Assembly: GCA_943789375.1 (NCBI GenBank)
Contig: CALSTX010000007.1
Location: forward strand, 17,696-81,695
DNA: 64,000 nucleotides
Source of the DNA: an uncultured Opitutales bacterium
GTDB taxonomy: Bacteria > Verrucomicrobiota > Verrucomicrobiia > Opitutales > Seribacteraceae
Direction: 5' to 3'
Part shown: piece after piece, positions 21,006-31,214 of the stretch
How positions within the stretch are numbered: the first letter of the stretch is position 1
Layout of the letters: the number at the start of each line of letters is the position of its first letter
Translations under genes and position numbers: made by a program
The notes under the pieces: model-generated
What the model saw: the letters and a program-made list of their open reading frames with translations, nothing else
The model's database searches: none
What the model was told of the DNA's origin: nothing

Positions 21006-21898
21006 TCAAGGCAAGTATTCCGATACATGCTGATATTGTTGATCAGATAGAAAACAATTTGCATGAAATTGCTCCATCTAAATGGATTATTTCACAAAGC
21101 CAAATAACCTTAAAAGCAAGACTTGAAGGGTACTTTGAAAACAACACAACTATCGATGAAATTAATGCTGAGATTAATTCATTTTTTTCAGACGAACTGT
21201 GTGAAAACAACAAACTAGAAGTCCTACAAATTAAGGATACAGATTGGACTGAATCCTATAAAATCCACTTTAAGCCCTGGAATCATAAAGGGTTTCATTG
21301 GATTCCAATATGGCTAGTTAATGAGTATTTAGTTCCCCAGGGAGATAAATATCTTCTTTTAGATCCAGGCATGGCTTTTGGTACAGGCAATCATGAAACT
21401 ACTAAACTTTGCTTAGAAGAAATAGTTGAGATGAATATAGTTCACTCTTCCAAACAAAAGGTACTAGACATAGGTTGCGGTTCTGGAATCTTAGCGATTA
21501 CTGCCGCTAAATTAGGATACCTTAACATTCTCGGCATTGATAATGATGAAGATGCTGTGAGAATATCAGAAGAAAATGCAATTCTTAACCAAGTGGAACA
21601 ACATATCCGTTTTATGAATCAAGGAATTGAATTGATTGAAGCAGACTCCAACTATGATCTAGTTGTAGCTAATATACAGTCAGATATTCTGATAGAAAAC
21701 AAAAATTCGATAATTGATACGACAAAAGCAGTATCAACACTGTTGCTATCAGGTGTCCTAGCAGTGGAAGCCAAAAATGTTGAAATGGTGTACTCTGAAG
21801 AATTTAACAGAAGAAAATACAACTATAAATCAGTGATAAAGACAGACGGAGAATGGAGTTTAATTCGATTCTCAATTTTGGAACCAAGAGAACTTTAG
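21002..21898 (+). CDS. prmA: Ribosomal protein L11 methyltransferase
   Basis: DWTESYK, LDPGMAFGTGNHETT, LDIGCGSGILAI, VVANI, LSGVL. Confidence 0.95.
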   Translation: MIKASIPIHADIVDQIENNLHEIAPSKWIISQSQITLKARLEGYFENNTTIDEINAEINSFFSDELCENNKLEVLQIKDTDWTESYKIHFKPWNHKGFHWIPIWLVNEYLVPQGDKYLLLDPGMAFGTGNHETTKLCLEEIVEMNIVHSSKQKVLDIGCGSGILAITAAKLGYLNILGIDNDEDAVRISEENAILNQVEQHIRFMNQGIELIEADSNYDLVVANIQSDILIENKNSIIDTTKAVSTLLLSGVLAVEAKNVEMVYSEEFNRRKYNYKSVIKTDGEWSLIRFSILEPREL

Positions 21899-23019
21899 CC
21901 CCCTAGATAAGTAAGAGCTTTGGGAATAGGTAATGTGTAAAAAGCAAATTGTGCAATTCCAAGGGAAGATATTTTTTTTGATACAGTATCTCTTAATGAC
22001 TCAACACTATCTGGTCCGACTGAAGTATAGACTAGAGCCCATTCTTCATTTTGTTGCTGCTCAGTATCAGCGGACTCAGCATCTATCATAACACCAAAGT
22101 TTGTACTCACACCCGGTGCACCCGTTTCTAAAATAGAATCATAAACTTCATCATAATGGTCGCGGGGTACTATACAATAGAGTCCTACTAAATCATTCAA
22201 AAAAGTGGATTTAAGAGATTTAGATTTAGATAAATCAGGCATTGCTCGCCAATCTTTACCTCCTTTTAAATCGTCTAAAGCGGAAATGACTTGTTCCATG
22301 TTAGCACCATGTGTTGAAGATGAAACCGTACTTGAAACATTGATAAGACCGGAGTGAACTGGAATTGAATACATAAAGCCACGACCCGGTTCCGTGATTC
22401 TTCCTGCCCGTGCCATATTACTGAAAACATCATCTGCTTCAGATTTATCTACCACACACCAAACAAATTCTTTTTCAGGCCCTTTAGTTATACGAAGCAT
22501 TGGGATTTTATCTCGTACGCCACCACCTTCTCCAAAAGTAACAGTTGGACCAGGAGCACCACTTTGAAGCGCTGCCTTTGCAATGTCATCAGCAATACCT
22601 TTTTCGCAAATGCAACATATTGCCTCTAAACTGGCTGCACTTTGGTTGTCTTCACTATTATTAGCATCGGATGAAATATTAGTTGGGAAGGATTTTGATA
22701 CCTGAGCATCATTACAACTCATACTAAAAACAGCCCCAGAACCGACTTTATCTAAATTTCCTGATTTAATAGCAGCTTCAGTAACTTGATTGATAATGTC
22801 GTCTGGAACAAGTGCCTGTAAAAGTAATTGCTCAGGAGCGGGTGGCGGAAACATTCTTTGAAGAAACCCACCTTCATTAAGTACAGAACCACGGGCGGAT
22901 ATTTGAAAAACCCCTTTCGCACCAGCTTTAGACACTGCATTAGAAACGCGTACAACTGATTCTTTCGGAAGAATTAAGTTTAGAAGGGAAACTCCTGATG
23001 ATTTTACTAAGTCGGTCAT
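21895..23019 (-). CDS. PII-like protein with three tandem PII-like domains
   Basis: Three approximately 95-aa units, each with a GA-x-G strand turn (AGAKGV, SGAPGP, TGAPGV); B-loop-like GSGAVF and GRGFMY in units 1 and 2; immediately downstream of the DUF1538 gene. Confidence 0.75.
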   Translation of the reverse strand: MTDLVKSSGVSLLNLILPKESVVRVSNAVSKAGAKGVFQISARGSVLNEGGFLQRMFPPPAPEQLLLQALVPDDIINQVTEAAIKSGNLDKVGSGAVFSMSCNDAQVSKSFPTNISSDANNSEDNQSAASLEAICCICEKGIADDIAKAALQSGAPGPTVTFGEGGGVRDKIPMLRITKGPEKEFVWCVVDKSEADDVFSNMARAGRITEPGRGFMYSIPVHSGLINVSSTVSSSTHGANMEQVISALDDLKGGKDWRAMPDLSKSKSLKSTFLNDLVGLYCIVPRDHYDEVYDSILETGAPGVSTNFGVMIDAESADTEQQQNEEWALVYTSVGPDSVESLRDTVSKKISSLGIAQFAFYTLPIPKALTYLGG

Positions 23020-23021
23020 GA

Positions 23022-25190
23022 TTATGCTTTCTCCATTTCTAATTCTGTTGCGTCATCCACTTTCGGTTTTTTTCGGACAAGTAGACCAACTGTGAGGACT
23101 GTAATGATAGGTCCAACTGAAGCCAGTGAAAGAACACCAAAACCATCAATAGCTCCAGTCTTGGCTCCAATACCTAGGCCCATAGCAAGCACAAGAGGCA
23201 CCGTAATTGGTCCTGTTGTAACACCCGCACTGTCCCATCCAAAGTTTACAAAATCTTCACTTGAAAAGAAGGTTAAAACCAAAAGAAAAGCATAGGGTGG
23301 TATCAACAAGTACCAAAGTTCTAAATTAAAAGCTATTTTGGCCACTCCAGTTGCAATTCCGCAAGCAACCCCTGTGGCAACAGCTTGCATCAATAAATTT
23401 TTCTTAAAAGCACCGACGGTTATTTTTTCTACAGTTGAACCAAGTGCATTTAATGCTGGTTCCGCCAAGGTTGCTCCATAGCCTAGAATGAAGCCAAAAA
23501 GAATCGCAAGACACTTCCCGGCAGTTGATGATTTGAAAAGAGGATCAACAAAACCTTCGCTTTGCCAAGGTTGAATCGATGTAAAACTAGAAACGACATT
23601 TCCGCCTAACTGTTCACCTAAGGGTGTTAAGCCTAAGGCTATTCCAAGATTAAAAAGACACATTCCAATGACGGCACAACCAATGCCTATAAATAATTCA
23701 TCTAAATATTTTGGTTTCTGCCTAAGTCCTCCCATCAACACAAGTAATAGTATTGAGCAAAGTGGCACAATGGCCCAAATCGCTCCCTCTAATGCTCCTC
23801 TATCTTGGTCAGGTCCATCAAGCTTACCATTTTTCTCATTATAATTGACGCTACCATCTTGATTGAACCCGTAAAAGTCTTCGCCAGGATCAAGGATTCC
23901 ATTACCGTTTTTATCTTCCTGTGGTTTGAAAGTGTTAGGGAAAAAATCGAAATTATTCGTAAAAGCGGTCGCAATATCCGAGCCTTCGTCCCAGACACCA
24001 TCGGGTGCTTTAAAACCCTCTCTAACGACATAAGCCTTTGCACCCTGCACCTCTACATTCTCACGTGAAACCTCATTGTCGCTTGACAGAAAACTTGGGA
24101 CAATTTTACCATCAGTTATTCTAGTTTTAATAGTGTAACCCTCAGGTAGCTTTTTATATTCCTGTAAGTATTTATCTACATTTTTTCTTTCATCTTGGGA
24201 TAAAGACCAAAATAAAGCATCTTCATCGACAGCTCCAGTAGCAGCCATTCTTTCAGCTGCTACAATGTCACCAAATTTCTGGTAGTCTTTGGGGTAATTT
24301 TTCCCGTAATCTCCAGCATTTAAATGCCATTCCGCCTTGGATAGCTTGGCCATGTAATAATTATCTCCATTAAATAAATAGAGGGCGTAACACATCACTG
24401 CTAGTATGGGAAATAAAGATGCTAAGGTAACAACACCAAAACCCGTGTTGCTGGAACCTCCCGTTGACACGATCCGACAAACTCCAATACCAAGCGCAAG
24501 AACTAAGGGTACTGTAACCGGGCCAGTCGTGACCGCACCGCAATCCCAAGCAAGGCCTAATACATGCCTAAGTCTATCGTCAGAAAACTGCATGTATAGG
24601 GTGATGCATGAAAGTACAATTACACCAACATATATAAATGGCTTCAGAGACCAACCTTTATAAAACCGTAAAACTCCAAGTAGAACAGCAATGCCAACAC
24701 CCACTCCAACACAATTGACAAGCATACCTGCTCCAGTGTTTAAAATAGTCCACAATAAAGGTGCAGCAGTTGGGTCCACACCGGAACCTGCAGCCCTAAG
24801 AACACCAATAGCTGGCTCTGCGAAAGTTGCAAAAGCTCCTAAAACGAAACCAAAAGCCAGACTTGCTGGTAAACAAGGAATTCCAAAAATCTTTTTTCTT
24901 GGTAGAGTAGATCCTAAAGTTTCCCCAAGAGGCATCAACCCAAGTCTGAGACCTTCCATGAAAAAAGCTAGTCCAACAATGACAATCATGATGCCTACTG
25001 CTATCATTAGAGAATAAACAATGGGTAATCCTAGGACCAGGACTTGGAAAACGATAAGGTATAGAATGATAAACCATACACATTGGATTTGTTCCACAAC
25101 CTTATCTTTCGAAAACGACAGCAAAATGCTAATCTTCTGTTTTAGAGTAAGTTGAAGTTTCTTTTGATCAGATGATTGTTGTGCCGTCAT
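23022..25190 (-). CDS. Fused tandem DUF1538 membrane protein (putative transporter)
   Basis: Duplicated motifs GLMPLGE/GLTPLGE, ATFAEPA/ATLAEPA, WDCGAVTTGPVTVP/WDSAGVTTGPITVP, GFGVVTLAS/GFGVLSLAS; about 190-aa soluble linker. Confidence 0.88.
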   Translation of the reverse strand: MTAQQSSDQKKLQLTLKQKISILLSFSKDKVVEQIQCVWFIILYLIVFQVLVLGLPIVYSLMIAVGIMIVIVGLAFFMEGLRLGLMPLGETLGSTLPRKKIFGIPCLPASLAFGFVLGAFATFAEPAIGVLRAAGSGVDPTAAPLLWTILNTGAGMLVNCVGVGVGIAVLLGVLRFYKGWSLKPFIYVGVIVLSCITLYMQFSDDRLRHVLGLAWDCGAVTTGPVTVPLVLALGIGVCRIVSTGGSSNTGFGVVTLASLFPILAVMCYALYLFNGDNYYMAKLSKAEWHLNAGDYGKNYPKDYQKFGDIVAAERMAATGAVDEDALFWSLSQDERKNVDKYLQEYKKLPEGYTIKTRITDGKIVPSFLSSDNEVSRENVEVQGAKAYVVREGFKAPDGVWDEGSDIATAFTNNFDFFPNTFKPQEDKNGNGILDPGEDFYGFNQDGSVNYNEKNGKLDGPDQDRGALEGAIWAIVPLCSILLLVLMGGLRQKPKYLDELFIGIGCAVIGMCLFNLGIALGLTPLGEQLGGNVVSSFTSIQPWQSEGFVDPLFKSSTAGKCLAILFGFILGYGATLAEPALNALGSTVEKITVGAFKKNLLMQAVATGVACGIATGVAKIAFNLELWYLLIPPYAFLLVLTFFSSEDFVNFGWDSAGVTTGPITVPLVLAMGLGIGAKTGAIDGFGVLSLASVGPIITVLTVGLLVRKKPKVDDATELEMEKA

Positions 25191-25275: not shown

Positions 25276-26478
25276 TCACATACTCCAAGATGCATTTGCG
25301 AGAGTCAAAGATACTTTGTTAACTCCTTGGTCTAAAACAATAGGAACATTCCATGTTACCCCAATTTTACCAAGAGCTGCAGTTCCTATTATAAAATAGT
25401 TACCCTTTTGGATCCCAGAAATAGACGCAGATCCGTTTATATCCGTTCTAACTCTTCTTCCATTTCCCTTCTCAACCTCGGAAAGTAATAATGTTCTAAT
25501 ATTCTTTTGGAGATTAGGATAGAGAAAAGAATTTTTTCTGGATTGAGCCCACAACTCTGAAAAGGATTCAAAAGATGAAAATTCAGACAGGTTGATATTA
25601 CCGGCTGAGAGAATCGCATTGAGGTTATTATTAATGACAAAAAACTCAGTGTAAAAAGCCTCTTTACTTTTTCCATTATAAGAGGTGACGACTGCATCAA
25701 AATTTAATGAACATGTACCTGTAAATAAACTCTTACTTGAGTTTTCATAATTCTGGGCAAACCGATTTTCCTCCAAATTAAGTTCCGGTTCTGCTAAAAA
25801 TATCTTTGTTTTAGGACTATTTTCAAGACTGGAAATTCGAGCTTCGAGGGAGTCATTTCGATACCTTAAATCTTTTATTTCATTCGATTTAAGAAATAGA
25901 CTATTTTTAAGGTTACTAATCTCTGAATGAAGTCCAGGAGCGACAACCTCTTCTGGAGAAATAAACTCGGAAGGAGAAGAGACAATTTTGGTTTCTCTTG
26001 CAGGTAATCCCTTCAATCGACGCACTTCAGCAAGCAGTTCGTCATTAATTGAAGAAAGTGATGCTATAGTTGTATCTTTGTTCGCATTAATTTTCCTCAA
26101 TTCCTCAATACTTCTTTGGTGTTCAATTGTTGATTCCTCTAGGTTTTGTAAGGCAACCTCGGCTTCAGTATTGGCAACTGTATCGAGGACTCTTCCGGCA
26201 TCAATGCCTGGGGAACTCACTGGAAGTGGAGTGGTAAAGCTAGGTTCAGCCCCTTCTACAACTAAAGATATAGACTTGTTGCTATCGTTTAAAAGATCCT
26301 CAAGATCGCTAACATTGTCAGGAGAAGACAGTAAAAGGTTTGTTACTTCACTATCGTTAGAACTTTCTTGTGTATTCTCCGTTTGAACTTGTTGCTCAGC
26401 AGTTCCGCAAGAGCAAATCGACATTACAAATACTAAAACAACGCAAGTAAACAAAGAATCTTTAAGCTTTTGGGACAT
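25276..26478 (-). CDS. Putative lipoprotein with central coiled coils, function unknown
   Basis: Basic-hydrophobic N-terminus ending in ICSC lipobox-like Cys; heptad-rich segments; beta-rich C-terminus (RTDINGSASISGIQKGNYFII). Confidence 0.65.
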   Translation of the reverse strand: MSQKLKDSLFTCVVLVFVMSICSCGTAEQQVQTENTQESSNDSEVTNLLLSSPDNVSDLEDLLNDSNKSISLVVEGAEPSFTTPLPVSSPGIDAGRVLDTVANTEAEVALQNLEESTIEHQRSIEELRKINANKDTTIASLSSINDELLAEVRRLKGLPARETKIVSSPSEFISPEEVVAPGLHSEISNLKNSLFLKSNEIKDLRYRNDSLEARISSLENSPKTKIFLAEPELNLEENRFAQNYENSSKSLFTGTCSLNFDAVVTSYNGKSKEAFYTEFFVINNNLNAILSAGNINLSEFSSFESFSELWAQSRKNSFLYPNLQKNIRTLLLSEVEKGNGRRVRTDINGSASISGIQKGNYFIIGTAALGKIGVTWNVPIVLDQGVNKVSLTLANASWSM

Positions 26479-26581
26479 AACAACTCATTACCAAAATATG
26501 TGTTCAATTCTTTGCAAGCACAATAATAGCGACGCTCAACTTGTTATTTACAAAATATTTATTTATGAAATATTGTTAGTA

Positions 26582-28948
26582 ATGCCTCAGCATACCCGAG
26601 AAGAGACTGATTTACTCAACCATGAGAATCGTTTTCTAAAGCAAACAATTCTATCTTTAAGAGATGAGCTGATTAAAAAAGAGATTGAATCCGAGGATTT
26701 GGTTCAAACTAAAGAAAATGAACTTCAATTGGAGATCAACTCCTTAAAGACTTCTATTGAACAGCAAAGGAGTGATTTAGACCAAAAAATTATAGCTCAT
26801 GACAATGAAAATCAAAATGTTCTTCAGAAATCCATAAATGAACAAAAGGAATTTAAAAAAATTATTCTAGATTTAAGGACTTCATTAGAAAAAAAATCTC
26901 TCGTCACAGATCAACAAAAACAGCAGTTAGCCTCCGTATTCAATCTAGAACTAAGCAGCTTGAAGAAACAGGTCGAGGTACTAAGGGAAGCGCTGGATAA
27001 AAGTCAGTTAGAAATTCAAGAGGTCGGACAACTTGCCACCAGGGGTGCTTCTAATGAAATCTCTGAACTCAAAAAATCTATACTCAATCTACGACAAAAA
27101 ATCGAAGGTTTGAATAATTTAAATGATCAAAAAATCCAAAAGATTAAAGCAGGTACAGAAATTGAGGCTAGAGGACTAAGAGCAACGATCACAAACCTTA
27201 GAAATCAATTAGAAAAACTCGAAAGCTCAAGGGATGATGCGGTTCAGAAGGCAATTTCAAGCAAATCGGCAGAGATATCTTCTCTTAAATTATCAATTTC
27301 TAATACTCGGGAAAAGCTAGCCAAGATAAAGGAAGAGGAGGAGGACAAAGCACAAACAAAATTTTCTACTTACAACCTAGAAATTAAAAACCTTAAGGAT
27401 ACTATCACAAGCATTCGCAATGAACTAGAAAACCAGAAAAATAAAGAAGCAGAAATTACTCAATCAGCGAAAAAAGAGGCATACGACGAAATTAAGCAAC
27501 TTAAGCAAACTCTCTCAAAGACTCGTGATAATCTCGAGCTTCAAAAGAATTTGGAAGATGATCGCATACAGAAAGTCAAAGCTAATGCTGAAATTGAAAT
27601 TACTGTATTAAAGAATTCAATCCAAGAACTCAGAGAAGAACTTGATAATTGCTCTTTTGATAAAAATACTGCGATTCAAAAGGTAGAAAATGGATACCGC
27701 TCTGAAATTTCGCTATTAAAACAATCTTTGTCAATAGCCCGTGATAATTTAGAAGACTTAAAAGCAAGAGAAGAAGATAAAATACAAAGAGCAATCTCGT
27801 CGATAAATAGCCAAAACAAAACATTTCAAAATACAATCATCGGATTAAGAGAAGAACTTGAAAAAGAATCATCTGATAAAGAGGACATGATTCAAAAGTA
27901 TCAATCTGCAACCAATCGGGAAATCCAGCAACTTAAATTTTCACTTGGAAAAACTCGTGAATCACTTGACCAGCAAAAAGCTAAGTACGAGGATAGAGTC
28001 CAAAAGGTCAAGGCTTCGAAAGAAAATGAAATTCATACCTTAAAAGGTTTAGCCCAAAGCTTACGAGATGAATTAGAACACTCTCAAGTTGTGACTGACG
28101 ATTTAGTTCAGAAGAGTAAAAGTGAATCTCAATCAGAAATAAATCAGCTGAAATCGTCTCTTCACAGAATGCGGGATCAGCTTCAAAAGGTTAAGGAATA
28201 CGAGGCGGAAAAACATCAAATGTCACAAGCCCAAAATGAAAGAGAAAATACGAGTCTTAAAAGCACTATTTCAACATTGAGAACAAAACTCGATGAAACC
28301 GAATTTAAATTTCAAGATTCAATACAAAAAGCAGAAGCCAGTTCAAATGCTCAACAAGTTGCACTCAAAAAAAGTCTGTTACAAACACGAGAAAAAATGG
28401 ACAGGCTTCAAAATGATAAAGAAGTAGAGGTGCAAAATGCGGTCTCTAAGCAAGAATCTACAATCCAACAATTGCAAAACAGTATATCTCAATTAAGAGA
28501 AGAAATAGAATTACAGAAAAGTCAGAATGAAGAAGCTACCCAAAAATCTATTTCGATTCATTTGACCGATAATTCACAATTGAAGAAATCAATCTTAGAT
28601 TTACGAAATAAACTTGAAAAAATTAAAATTTCGAAAGAAGAAGCGTTACAAAAATTGAGATTTGAAAGAGAAAATGAAATCAAAGCTTTGCAAGAAAATT
28701 TAACCCAACTTCGATTGGATTTGGAAGGTTCCGAAATCAATAAACAGGAAGCAGTACAAAATGTTGTGAGCTCAAATCAAAATGAAATTAACCACTTTCG
28801 TAGAATGGTATCCAATCTTCGCGATGAGCTTGAACAAAACAAAGCAAGATACGAACAAGCAAAGCAAGATGATCTGCAAAAAAAAGAATCGGAAATGTTG
28901 CAGTTACAGTCGACTATAATTGATTTACGAACTAAACTAGAAAATTAA
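26582..28948 (+). CDS. 788-aa helical protein built of exact 36-residue repeats
   Basis: Probable start ATG 26582 (MPQHTREE); 14-aa leader + 21 x 36 aa + 18-aa partial repeat; no TM segment or signal peptide. Confidence 0.9.
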   Translation: MPQHTREETDLLNHENRFLKQTILSLRDELIKKEIESEDLVQTKENELQLEINSLKTSIEQQRSDLDQKIIAHDNENQNVLQKSINEQKEFKKIILDLRTSLEKKSLVTDQQKQQLASVFNLELSSLKKQVEVLREALDKSQLEIQEVGQLATRGASNEISELKKSILNLRQKIEGLNNLNDQKIQKIKAGTEIEARGLRATITNLRNQLEKLESSRDDAVQKAISSKSAEISSLKLSISNTREKLAKIKEEEEDKAQTKFSTYNLEIKNLKDTITSIRNELENQKNKEAEITQSAKKEAYDEIKQLKQTLSKTRDNLELQKNLEDDRIQKVKANAEIEITVLKNSIQELREELDNCSFDKNTAIQKVENGYRSEISLLKQSLSIARDNLEDLKAREEDKIQRAISSINSQNKTFQNTIIGLREELEKESSDKEDMIQKYQSATNREIQQLKFSLGKTRESLDQQKAKYEDRVQKVKASKENEIHTLKGLAQSLRDELEHSQVVTDDLVQKSKSESQSEINQLKSSLHRMRDQLQKVKEYEAEKHQMSQAQNERENTSLKSTISTLRTKLDETEFKFQDSIQKAEASSNAQQVALKKSLLQTREKMDRLQNDKEVEVQNAVSKQESTIQQLQNSISQLREEIELQKSQNEEATQKSISIHLTDNSQLKKSILDLRNKLEKIKISKEEALQKLRFERENEIKALQENLTQLRLDLEGSEINKQEAVQNVVSSNQNEINHFRRMVSNLRDELEQNKARYEQAKQDDLQKKESEMLQLQSTIIDLRTKLEN
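26624..28945 (+). repeat. Degenerate 108-bp (36-codon) tandem repeat array, 21.5 units
   Basis: Consensus E-I-x-x-L-K-x-S/T-I/L-x-x-L/T-R-x-x-L-E...Q; the repeat is clear at protein level and divergent at DNA level. Confidence 0.9.
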
Positions 28949-28949
28949 C

Positions 28950-31214
28950 ATGGCAGATAAAAAAGATACCAAATCCAAAAGAACATCCAGGTTCGCTGAA
29001 ATGCTTTTGCAGGTTACTAATGATCTAGCAAAAACTAAATCCCTTGATGAAGCTCTTGAAGTGTTAGTTAAAATAACCACTTCAACCATCGGTGCAGAAA
29101 GAGGAACAATTTTTCTCAATGATGCCTCCACCGGTGAGCTATACTCTCGAATTGCCCAAGGAAATTTCAGGCGTGAAATAAGAATCCTAAACACAAAAGG
29201 CGTGGCAGGATGGGTCTTTACCCAAGATGAGGGTGTCATCATTCATGACGCCTACAAAGATGAAAGGTTTAATAAAGCTGTTGATGTGAGAACAGGGTTT
29301 CGAACCAAAAGCATCCTTTGTGCCCCCCTAAGAACGGTGTCGGGGGAAGAAATTGGCGTATCTCAGATACTAAACAAGATAGACGGTGAGTTTGAGCAAG
29401 AGGACCTCGACTTACTTGAGGCAATGACTGAACAAGCTGCTATTGCTATTCAGGGAAATATAATCGTTGAGCAAATTGAGGCAGCAAGAAAACAAGAGTT
29501 GGAATTCCTGGATGTCGTATCTCAAGTTTCGTCCGAGCTAGAACTTACTCCCCTCTTGCAGAAAATCATCACCACAATCTCTACAATGTTAGATTGTGAA
29601 AGAGCTACTCTTTTTATCAATGATGAAAAAACAAATGAATTATATACAGAAGTAGGCGAAGGACTTGATGAAAAATCTGTAATCAAATTCCCCAACCACC
29701 TTGGCATAGCAGGAACCGTTTTTACTTCTGGAAAACCCGTAAATATTCCTCATGCTTATGCGGATCTCAGGTTCAATCCTAGTTTTGATAAACAAACTGG
29801 GTTTTTCACCAGATCAATTTTGTGCATGCCGGTATTTAATAAGGAAGGCAAAACCATTGGAGTTAGCCAAGTTCTTAATAAAAGAGGTGGTTCCTTTAAC
29901 GCAGAAGATGAAAAAAGGTTAGCAGCTTTTACATCTCAAATTTCAATGGGTATCGAGAATGCAAAATTATTCGACGATGTTCAAAACCAAAAAAATTATT
30001 CTGAGAGTATTTTATCTAGTATGCATGATGCTGTTCTCACTCTAGATGAAACCGGAATTATCAGAACCTGTAATACGGCTGGTCTTCGTATTCTAAAATC
30101 TCCCATATTGAGCGATATTTTGGGAAAAAAAGCTTCGGATGTGTTAACTGAATCAAATTCATGGTTACTTCAAAAACTGGATTCTATGGAGGAACAGGAA
30201 GACTTTTTAGATGCTGAAATTAAAATTGAAGATGAAACACTTTCGGTGAATGTGTCAGTGATGCCACTCGTAGGTCAAAAGAAAGAAAGCCTCGGTGTGA
30301 TGCTTATGATTGAAGATATTAGTTCGGAAAAAAGAATGAAATCTACGATGTCTAGATATATGGACCCAGAATTGGCGGATCAGCTAATGATGGGTGGAGA
30401 TGGGAATGACATCATGGGGGGCAAGCAAAGTGTAGGAACCGTCCTATTTTCCGATGTTAGAAGTTTCACCACCATTACAGAAGAACTTGGTGCTCAAGGA
30501 ACAGTCAAGCTATTGAACGAATACTTTACAATTATGGTGGATTGTATAACGGATGAAGGGGGCATGCTTGATAAATTTATTGGCGATGCGATGATGTGTA
30601 TTTTTGGAACACCCGTTCCTCATGATGACGATCCTGACCGTGCTGTAAGAGCTGCTATCAGAATGATGACAGACTTAATTGTTTTTAATGACAAACGAGC
30701 AACCGAAGGAAAAATGCCCATTGATCACGGTATGGGTATAAACACCGACTCTATCGTTTCTGGAAATATCGGTTCGCCAAAAAGAATGGACTACACTGTC
30801 ATTGGAGATGGGGTTAACTTAGCAGCTCGTATTGAAAGTGCATGTAAACAATACGGAGCTCATATCCTGATAAGTGAGTTTACGCAAAAAGCTGTAAAAG
30901 CCACCTACAGAACCCGCCAAGTCGATTATATGATCGTGAAGGGAAAAACTGTTCCCGTTGGTGTCTACGAGGTCTTGGACTTTCATGACGATAAATCTTA
31001 CCCTAACCTAGCGGACGCCCTTGGGGTATTCAACGAAGGCTACAGATCCTGGACAGATGGCAAATGGGATCAAGCCATAAAATTATTCAAAAATGTTCAG
31101 AAAATAAACCCTGCGGATAAAGCCGCTCAACTTTATTTGGATCGTTGTGCTCACATGAAGAAGAATCCACCAAAAGGCGATTGGTCTGGTGTTTGGGTGA
31201 TGACAACTAAGTAA
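28950..31214 (+). CDS. GAF-GAF-PAS-class III adenylate cyclase-TPR protein (CyaB-like architecture)
   Basis: Two GAF domains with NK...F...D(E) motifs (LNKIDGEFEQED, LNKRGGSFNAEDE); PAS; catalytic FSDVRSFT, DKFIGDA, MDYTVIGDGVNLAARIES; C-terminal TPR-like helices. Confidence 0.92.
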   Translation: MADKKDTKSKRTSRFAEMLLQVTNDLAKTKSLDEALEVLVKITTSTIGAERGTIFLNDASTGELYSRIAQGNFRREIRILNTKGVAGWVFTQDEGVIIHDAYKDERFNKAVDVRTGFRTKSILCAPLRTVSGEEIGVSQILNKIDGEFEQEDLDLLEAMTEQAAIAIQGNIIVEQIEAARKQELEFLDVVSQVSSELELTPLLQKIITTISTMLDCERATLFINDEKTNELYTEVGEGLDEKSVIKFPNHLGIAGTVFTSGKPVNIPHAYADLRFNPSFDKQTGFFTRSILCMPVFNKEGKTIGVSQVLNKRGGSFNAEDEKRLAAFTSQISMGIENAKLFDDVQNQKNYSESILSSMHDAVLTLDETGIIRTCNTAGLRILKSPILSDILGKKASDVLTESNSWLLQKLDSMEEQEDFLDAEIKIEDETLSVNVSVMPLVGQKKESLGVMLMIEDISSEKRMKSTMSRYMDPELADQLMMGGDGNDIMGGKQSVGTVLFSDVRSFTTITEELGAQGTVKLLNEYFTIMVDCITDEGGMLDKFIGDAMMCIFGTPVPHDDDPDRAVRAAIRMMTDLIVFNDKRATEGKMPIDHGMGINTDSIVSGNIGSPKRMDYTVIGDGVNLAARIESACKQYGAHILISEFTQKAVKATYRTRQVDYMIVKGKTVPVGVYEVLDFHDDKSYPNLADALGVFNEGYRSWTDGKWDQAIKLFKNVQKINPADKAAQLYLDRCAHMKKNPPKGDWSGVWVMTTK

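Follow-up and report, generated by a model that had tools for sequence, protein, structure and literature searches.

A single-chain protein of three PII-like units encoded directly downstream of a fused DUF1538 transporter gene

The locus and its gene family

Few signal transducers are as widespread as PII proteins, whose mechanism is framed as that of three identical subunits with three equivalent sites. Here we analyzed a 64,000-nucleotide stretch of an uncultured Opitutales genome (contig CALSTX010000007.1, hereafter the window), which carries a gene for a 374-residue protein with three PII-like units in one chain. The gene lies at 21895..23019 on the minus strand, with its stop codon at 21895-21897, and was assigned from the open reading frame list and the Pfam P-II family. 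Its upstream neighbor, at 23022..25190 on the same strand, encodes a 722-residue fusion of two DUF1538 halves, the presumed target of the PII-like protein. The two genes are 2 nt apart, the ATG of the triple PII-like gene following the TAA of the DUF1538 gene in a TAA-tc-ATG junction. We consider, with a probability of about 0.65, that the gene encodes a cytoplasmic single-chain PII-like heterotrimer, the dedicated and probably 1:1 partner of the upstream DUF1538 (UmpAB-type) cation/proton transporter.

Pfam P-II (PF00543) matches the 374-residue protein with 36 bits against a cut-off of 25 (E=9e-9), in two stretches, the better of which covers residues 12-108. The NCBIfam GlnB equivalog model (NF008111) scores 14.3 bits, below its cut-off of 202, and neither Pfam (2025) nor NCBIfam (2026) holds a dedicated model for the triple PII-like family. 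A representative search of 1.84 billion proteins returned 848 relatives at E<=1e-3 and 345 at E<=1e-10; there are more than 230 close homologs, and the best 150 relatives are mostly full length at 365-410 residues. Clustered at 50% identity, the family forms hundreds of groups, and it was met here in two bacterial phyla. The architecture is widespread and not peculiar to the Opitutales source genome. We found no description in the literature of multi-unit (tandem, fused or triple) PII proteins, or of a PII partner of DUF1538.

In public sources the relatives are named 'nitrogen regulatory protein PII' or 'P-II family nitrogen regulator'. These names and the above-cut-off PF00543 match would suit a nitrogen-regulatory PII of the GlnB/GlnK type, beside which the DUF1538 gene lies by chance. 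This explanation is scarcely credible given the GlnB equivalog score of 14 bits against 202, the three units in one chain, the lack of the Tyr51 motif, the TGxxGDGKI signature and Gln39, and a DUF1538 adjacency that is universal in the genomes sampled. The genome also has two canonical 112-residue PII genes elsewhere, approximately 2 kb apart at G000:C4:184294-186629 (loci L069 and L070). Both of their products carry the full GFGRQKG and TGKIGDGKIF motifs, and the source organism presumably uses them as its nitrogen PII pair; the triple PII-like protein is therefore not the nitrogen PII. The public label 'nitrogen regulatory protein P-II' is misleading for DUF1538-linked PII-like genes.

Three diverged units with a predicted PII fold

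The first-pass annotation of the window had read the protein as three tandem PII-like units, and profile comparison bears this out. Unit profiles were cut from an alignment of 46 full-length members, 23-67% identical to the window protein, at residues 8-112 (unit 1), 128-230 (unit 2) and 272-374 (unit 3), and compared by hhalign. Units 1 and 2 match with 99.1% probability (E=1.4e-18), units 2 and 3 with 99.1% (E=9e-19), and units 1 and 3 with 97.5% (E=6e-12), each alignment spanning 93-98 columns. Every unit also aligns over its full length to canonical GlnB, including the two PII proteins of the genome itself (95%, 64% and 93%).

All of the following segments are on the minus strand. Unit 1 (22684..22998, residues 8-112) has a long T-loop-like loop at residues 43-63, a conserved Arg43, a B-loop with Gly93-x-Gly95, and a degenerate C-loop. 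A variable, low-complexity connector (22639..22683, residues 113-127) leads to unit 2; it has the lowest conservation in the family, 0.62 bits, and a predicted local distance difference test score (pLDDT) below 50 at residues 122-127. Unit 2 (22333..22638, residues 128-229), delimited by hhalign and conservation, is the most conserved of the three and contains the T-loop base G165-x-G167-x-R169-D170, Lys183 (equivalent to GlnB Lys58), the B-loop P211-G-x-G214-F, and a C-loop with G224 and N227. Its short T-loop and T-loop base (22468..22533, residues 163-184, GEGGGVRDKIPMLRITKGPEKE) form the best conserved stretch of the family at 3.05 bits. The segment between units 2 and 3 (22204..22332, residues 230-272) holds a helix pair at residues 241-258 (22246-22299). 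Unit 3 (21898..22203, residues 273-374), placed by hhalign, AlphaFold2 and conservation, has a degenerate T-loop base and B-loop; its conserved parts are the alpha1-beta2 turn (G300, G303) and the C-terminal loop (T370, Y371).

AlphaFold2, run for the 374-residue protein on an alignment of 25 sequences, gave a model with a mean pLDDT of 78.6 and a predicted template modeling score (pTM) of 0.80, built of three beta-alpha-beta-beta-alpha-beta units. Low-confidence loops at residues 47-61, 171-175 and 316-322 fall at the PII T-loop positions, and the low pLDDT at 171-175 hints that the tip of the unit 2 T-loop is mobile. For unit 3, whose failure to adopt a PII fold had been named as an outcome that would speak against a pseudo-trimer, the predicted fold is PII-like with the same beta-alpha-beta-beta-alpha-beta order and a pLDDT of 88-94. 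Foldseek against the PDB matches individual units to GlnB/GlnK structures (probability 1.0) at a target-normalized template modeling score (TMt) of 0.58-0.67. No PDB chain matches more than one unit or the whole protein, with the query-normalized score (TMq) at most 0.23 for the whole chain. The family profile likewise matches only single-domain PII chains in the PDB, the best being 9p1x_H from the NifI1,2 complex (E=1.3e-5). Genome G174, which lacks DUF1538, has a lone 108-residue PII-like gene (L075 5988-6314) whose best-scoring model is that of unit 3 (E=2e-13).

Unequal pockets and predicted clefts

The motifs quoted in the first-pass annotation for units 1 and 2, and their absence from unit 3, are confirmed by alignment to GlnB. 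LDKVGSGAVF (residues 89-98) and ITEPGRGFMY (residues 208-217) align to the GlnB B-loop TGKIGDGKIF, with G93/G95 of unit 1 and G212/G214 of unit 2 sitting on GlnB G87/G89. At the same position unit 3 has LGIAQF, without Gly-x-Gly. The GlnB T-loop Tyr motif, stated to be missing, is indeed found in no unit: the region of YRGAEY, with the Tyr51/Ser49 modification sites, is deleted in units 2 and 3 and replaced by GGFLQRMFPPPAPE in unit 1. Within unit 2, G165 is kept in 100% of 137 full-length family members, G167 in 98% and Arg169 in 99%, followed by Asp170; K183 is kept in 93%, G212 in 97% and G214 in 100%.

In PII, ligand is bound by Gln39 and Lys58, one at either end of the T-loop, and the B-loop signature TGxxGDGKI is needed for ATP/ADP binding (PMC4316997). 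The full signature occurs in no unit, and only the equivalents of Gly87 and Gly89 are kept, in units 1 and 2. The Lys58 equivalent is kept in unit 2 only, and no unit has Gln at the Gln39 position. The Lys90 position is occupied by Ala96 in unit 1 and Phe215 in unit 2. With regard to the B-loop signature, Gln39, the Tyr51 motif and the 112-residue homotrimeric subunit (here 374 residues and three non-identical units in one chain), the triple PII-like protein is not a canonical PII.

The PII pocket consists of the T-loop base and B-loop of one subunit and the C-loop of its neighbor, as seen in the NifI1,2 heterotrimer (PMC12439982). We compared these elements by information content over the same 137 members, for which the family mean is 1.72 bits. 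Conservation of the T-loop base, B-loop and C-loop is 2.29, 2.73 and 0.86 bits in unit 1, 3.08, 3.44 and 1.93 bits in unit 2, and 0.96, 0.87 and 2.12 bits in unit 3. Unit 3 has thus lost its own pocket and kept the C-loop that it could lend, unit 1 shows the reverse, and unit 2 has kept both. The three non-equivalent clefts proposed in the first-pass annotation find indirect support in this pattern, which fits what a head-to-tail arrangement would predict, namely two live clefts and one dead one.

The covalent trimer of that annotation is supported, also indirectly, by the model. A pTM of 0.80 over 374 residues, 51 of them disordered, would place the three units as one rigid body, and with it the PII-like prediction for unit 3 points to a pseudo-trimer. 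We regard all three units as confidently placed relative to each other because, by our own reasoning, three independent 100-residue domains would give a pTM well under 0.5.

Alternatively, three chains could associate so that like units form separate homotrimers (three copies each of units 1, 2 and 3), giving nine domains that could bind three transporters. All characterized PII family members are trimers of separate chains, and the long disordered connector between units 1 and 2, with its pLDDT below 50 at residues 122-127, would permit domain swapping. We consider this arrangement quite improbable. The pTM of the monomer argues for confident packing within one chain, and clefts between like units should keep or lose both of their halves together, whereas units 3 and 1 show opposite patterns. 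The two-gene relatives described below also have two different PII paralogs, not one.

A conserved helix pair between units 2 and 3

The first-pass annotation had also noted a helical linker joining units 2 and 3. Its helical nature is upheld: EQVISALDDLKGGKDWR forms helices at residues 241-251 and 255-258 in the AlphaFold2 model. Its description as a mere linker does not stand. At 2.72 bits, segment 241-258 is the third most conserved of the family; Asp249, Trp257 and Arg258 are present in 100% of the 137 sequences, and Ala239, Gln243 and Gly253 are near 90% or above. The passive connectors are residues 113-129 and 260-273, at 0.6-0.7 bits. A hidden Markov model of segment 241-258 matches three-unit proteins only. 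Judged by its conservation, the helix pair is a functional element and no passive tether, since Asp249, Trp257 and Arg258 are invariant.

The DUF1538 transporter

Pfam DUF1538 (PF07556) matches the 722-residue protein twice (E=9e-108, 358.8 bits). The N-terminal half, residues 34-270, is closest to NCBIfam UmpA (NF041627; 191.9 bits, cut-off 490) and the C-terminal half, residues 471-701, to UmpB (NF041628; 156.4 bits, cut-off 500). Between them is a hydrophilic, acidic insert of ~190 residues (271-470). UmpAB of Halomonas zhaodongensis is a two-component Na+(Li+,K+)/H+ antiporter (PMC5484666), and this was the only paper found in the literature on DUF1538, PF07556 or UmpAB.

The AlphaFold2 model of the 722-residue protein is mediocre (pLDDT 61, pTM 0.64). 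Foldseek gave no significant fold match in the PDB (best E=0.05), and a profile search found no DUF1538 chain there. By crude hydropathy and a positive-inside count, the protein would have 7+7 helices, its halves would face opposite ways in the membrane, and the acidic insert would lie outside the cell; an odd number of helices per half also agrees with the fusions in other genomes whose connector is almost absent. If the halves are inverted in this way, the cytoplasmic face would have no rotational symmetry, which would rationalize an asymmetric partner.

Adjacency and unit number across genomes

The pairing of the two genes extends well beyond the window. In the Opitutales loci, the gene order is the same in 64 of 64 cases where the flank is present: a cyclase gene and a gene for a rod-like repeat protein, both divergent, then a lipoprotein-like gene, the double DUF1538 gene, the triple PII-like gene, and a convergent prmA. 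Two distant three-unit homologs, L065 in a Sphingobacteriaceae genome (G201) and L066 on a metagenome contig, also follow a fused DUF1538 gene immediately: in L065 a gap of 1 nt separates the two genes, and in L066 they overlap by 4 nt.

To these we add a co-occurrence sample of 602 genomes, 201 from Verrucomicrobiota and 401 from Bacteroidota. DUF1538 is present in 12 of the 201 Verrucomicrobiota, and the genomes in which a PII-like gene directly adjoins it are these same 12; for Bacteroidota the figures are 10 of 401, with an adjoining PII-like gene in 10/10. An adjoining PII-like gene is therefore found in 22/22 DUF1538-positive genomes. With the 2-nt spacing in the window and the 64/64 loci, this is an adjacency conserved across taxa and across two phyla, as is found for transporter-regulator pairs. 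The earlier proposal that the protein is a partner of the adjacent DUF1538 protein gains indirect support from this genomic evidence.

A survey of unit number in the DUF1538-linked genes, which the first-pass annotation had suggested, shows that the partner has three units in 11 of the 22 genomes, two in nine and a single unit in two. The nine two-unit genomes comprise three with separate gene pairs next to split DUF1538 A and B genes, two with gene pairs next to a fused DUF1538, and four with fused two-unit proteins. All three-unit partners accompany DUF1538 fusions of 625-897 residues with an insert of at least 80 residues. Two- and single-unit partners accompany split DUF1538 proteins (232-247 residues) or fusions with open frames of 480-589 residues. 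Heteromeric PII partners seem to be the rule for the DUF1538 transporter family, with the window protein as the fully fused form.

The two-gene and two-unit partners (L072, L073 and L080-L086) resemble the window pair in lying directly downstream of DUF1538, with units related to units 1 and 2. They differ in lacking unit 3 and the conserved helix, and their DUF1538 is split or a fusion with a short connector (478-507 residues). No close PDB relative was found for the two-gene DUF1538-linked PII proteins. An apparent 1039-residue fusion of the double DUF1538 protein with units 2-3 at L064 5900-6000 was rejected as an artefact of a 100-N scaffold gap.

Proposed mode of action

In its mode of action, the triple PII-like protein probably most resembles the GlnK-AmtB and SbtB-SbtA pairs. 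The likenesses are a PII-like fold, a transporter gene directly beside with putative co-transcription, mobile T-loop-like loops between beta2 and beta3, and a Gly-rich T-loop base and B-loop at the predicted inter-unit clefts. Unlike GlnK and SbtB, which have three identical 112-residue subunits, the window protein is one chain of three diverged units; of its three clefts, only two appear functional; it lacks Lys90, Gln39 and Tyr51; and it has an extra invariant helix (D249, W257, R258) without a counterpart. AmtB and SbtA are C3 trimers, whereas the DUF1538 target is pseudo-heterodimeric.

NifI1,2 is similar in being a PII trimer of non-identical units with asymmetric pockets, one of which is always empty, and with one T-loop unused. 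It consists, however, of two separate gene products in a 2:1 ratio that keep the canonical ADP/ATP/2-oxoglutarate residues and target nitrogenase, whereas in the window protein the a, b and c units are covalently joined, the third is degenerate, and the link is to a transporter. As for UmpAB, the window transporter shares its two homologous DUF1538 halves, the N-terminal one similar to UmpA and the C-terminal one to UmpB. Here, though, they are fused into one 722-residue chain with a ~190-residue insert, and a shared substrate is not a safe assumption. No PII partner is mentioned in the UmpAB paper (PMC5484666).

For the window protein, we propose that the units would be arranged head to tail, like the subunits of a PII trimer, with the unit 1 pocket (T-loop base and B-loop) completed by the unit 2 C-loop and the unit 2 pocket completed by the unit 3 C-loop. 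The third cleft, between the unit 3 pocket and the unit 1 C-loop, would be dead, leaving unit 3 mainly as a structural wall that supplies elements in trans. A small effector in the live clefts would move the two conserved T-loops, those of units 1 and 2, and perhaps also the helix with the invariant Asp249, Trp257 and Arg258. This effector would most likely be an adenine nucleotide and, in some lineages, possibly cyclic AMP (cAMP). By docking on the cytoplasmic side of the transporter, the T-loops would turn it on or off, in the manner of GlnK on AmtB and SbtB on SbtA, and the asymmetry would suit a pseudo-heterodimeric target better than a C3 trimer. The most specific form of this proposal can be put forward only tentatively, and we think it somewhat likelier to be wrong than right. 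It would have a covalent a-b-c PII heterotrimer, with two sensing clefts, a dead structural unit and the added Asp/Trp/Arg helix, bound 1:1 to an inverted-repeat (antiparallel) DUF1538 transporter, with broken three-fold symmetry and a response to cAMP in some lineages.

Several observations weigh against a ligand-controlled pseudo-trimer. An open row of units 1, 2 and 3 would give the same conservation pattern as a closed ring, and the ring would close only if both live interfaces are canonical. AlphaFold2 run on a monomer may pack repeated domains artificially. Mean-field direct coupling analysis of inter-unit contacts over 253 sequences (effective number 134) gave top pairs that are scattered noise. 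The ligand site itself is incomplete. Canonical Lys90, Asp88, Thr83/Gly84 and Gln39 are missing from all units, and a GlnB-like mode of binding ATP, Mg and 2-oxoglutarate is unlikely for this reason; nucleotide binding is not assured. On the transporter side, the substrate of the 722-residue protein is uncertain because both halves score below the UmpA and UmpB equivalog cut-offs. UmpAB, moreover, gave Na+/Li+ tolerance and antiport in E. coli with no PII gene present (PMC5484666); in the Halomonas case at least, basal activity therefore does not depend on the partner. Lastly, a cyclase gene is linked to the pair in two lineages only, an Opitutales block and one Sphingobacteriaceae genome, and class III cyclases are wholly absent from one carrier genome (G163). 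On these grounds cAMP was rejected as a general ligand and is at most a lineage-specific effector. Another candidate effector is cyclic di-AMP, because the genome has one diadenylate cyclase.

The missing ligand residues bear on a further possibility, an obligatory subunit with a structural or gating role like that of KtrA/TrkA on Ktr/Trk, in which the PII fold is a mere scaffold and there is no ligand control. Besides the loss of the ATP-binding residues Lys90 and Gln39, the strict co-occurrence and adjacency in 22/22 genomes would be expected of such a subunit, as would the fixed stoichiometry that translational coupling implies. We think this unlikely, since the best conserved residues are at PII ligand positions (the T-loop-base Gly-x-Gly, the Lys58 equivalent and the B-loop Gly-x-Gly) and UmpAB alone sufficed for tolerance and antiport in E. 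coli.

If the protein is a pseudo-trimer as we propose, it would provide a naturally occurring single-chain heterotrimer whose positions can be mutated one at a time, and so a good means of finding out how many occupied sites and how many T-loops are required for a PII switch. DUF1538 transporters, which have one study, no solved structure and no known-fold match, would also gain their first regulatory handle. The cis/trans conservation pattern, the 22/22 co-occurrence with its unit numbers, and the association with a cyclase are new here.

Neighboring genes

The window also contains, at 28950..31214 on the plus strand, a class III nucleotide cyclase with GAF-GAF-PAS domains (PF00211 match at G000:C7:48133-48645), one of five class III cyclases in the source genome. 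It belongs to the divergent neighboring operon. Across 25276-31214, a lipoprotein-like coiled-coil gene lies upstream of the transporter gene in the same operon, and the divergent operon consists of a gene for an 816-residue repeat rod and the cyclase. This layout of lipoprotein, rod and cyclase is kept in all Opitutales loci where the flank reaches and was found in no other lineage examined. In the 4-Mb Sphingobacteriaceae genome G201, the sole class III cyclase (cyclase and HD domains, L065 4220-6052) is 70 bp upstream of the double DUF1538-triple PII pair on the same strand, an association that arose independently of the Opitutales block. The neighboring cyclase may supply the ligand, as a lineage-specific association and not as a core part of the system.

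In the same Sphingobacteriaceae locus, the triple PII-like gene is followed on the same strand by a Na_H_Exchanger (CPA-type) gene (L065 9183-10424), which fits a context of cation/proton homeostasis. At the other end of the operon in the window, the stop codons of the triple PII-like gene and the convergent prmA overlap by 4 nt (21895-21898). This leaves no room for a terminator between the two genes, and a simple scan found none there.

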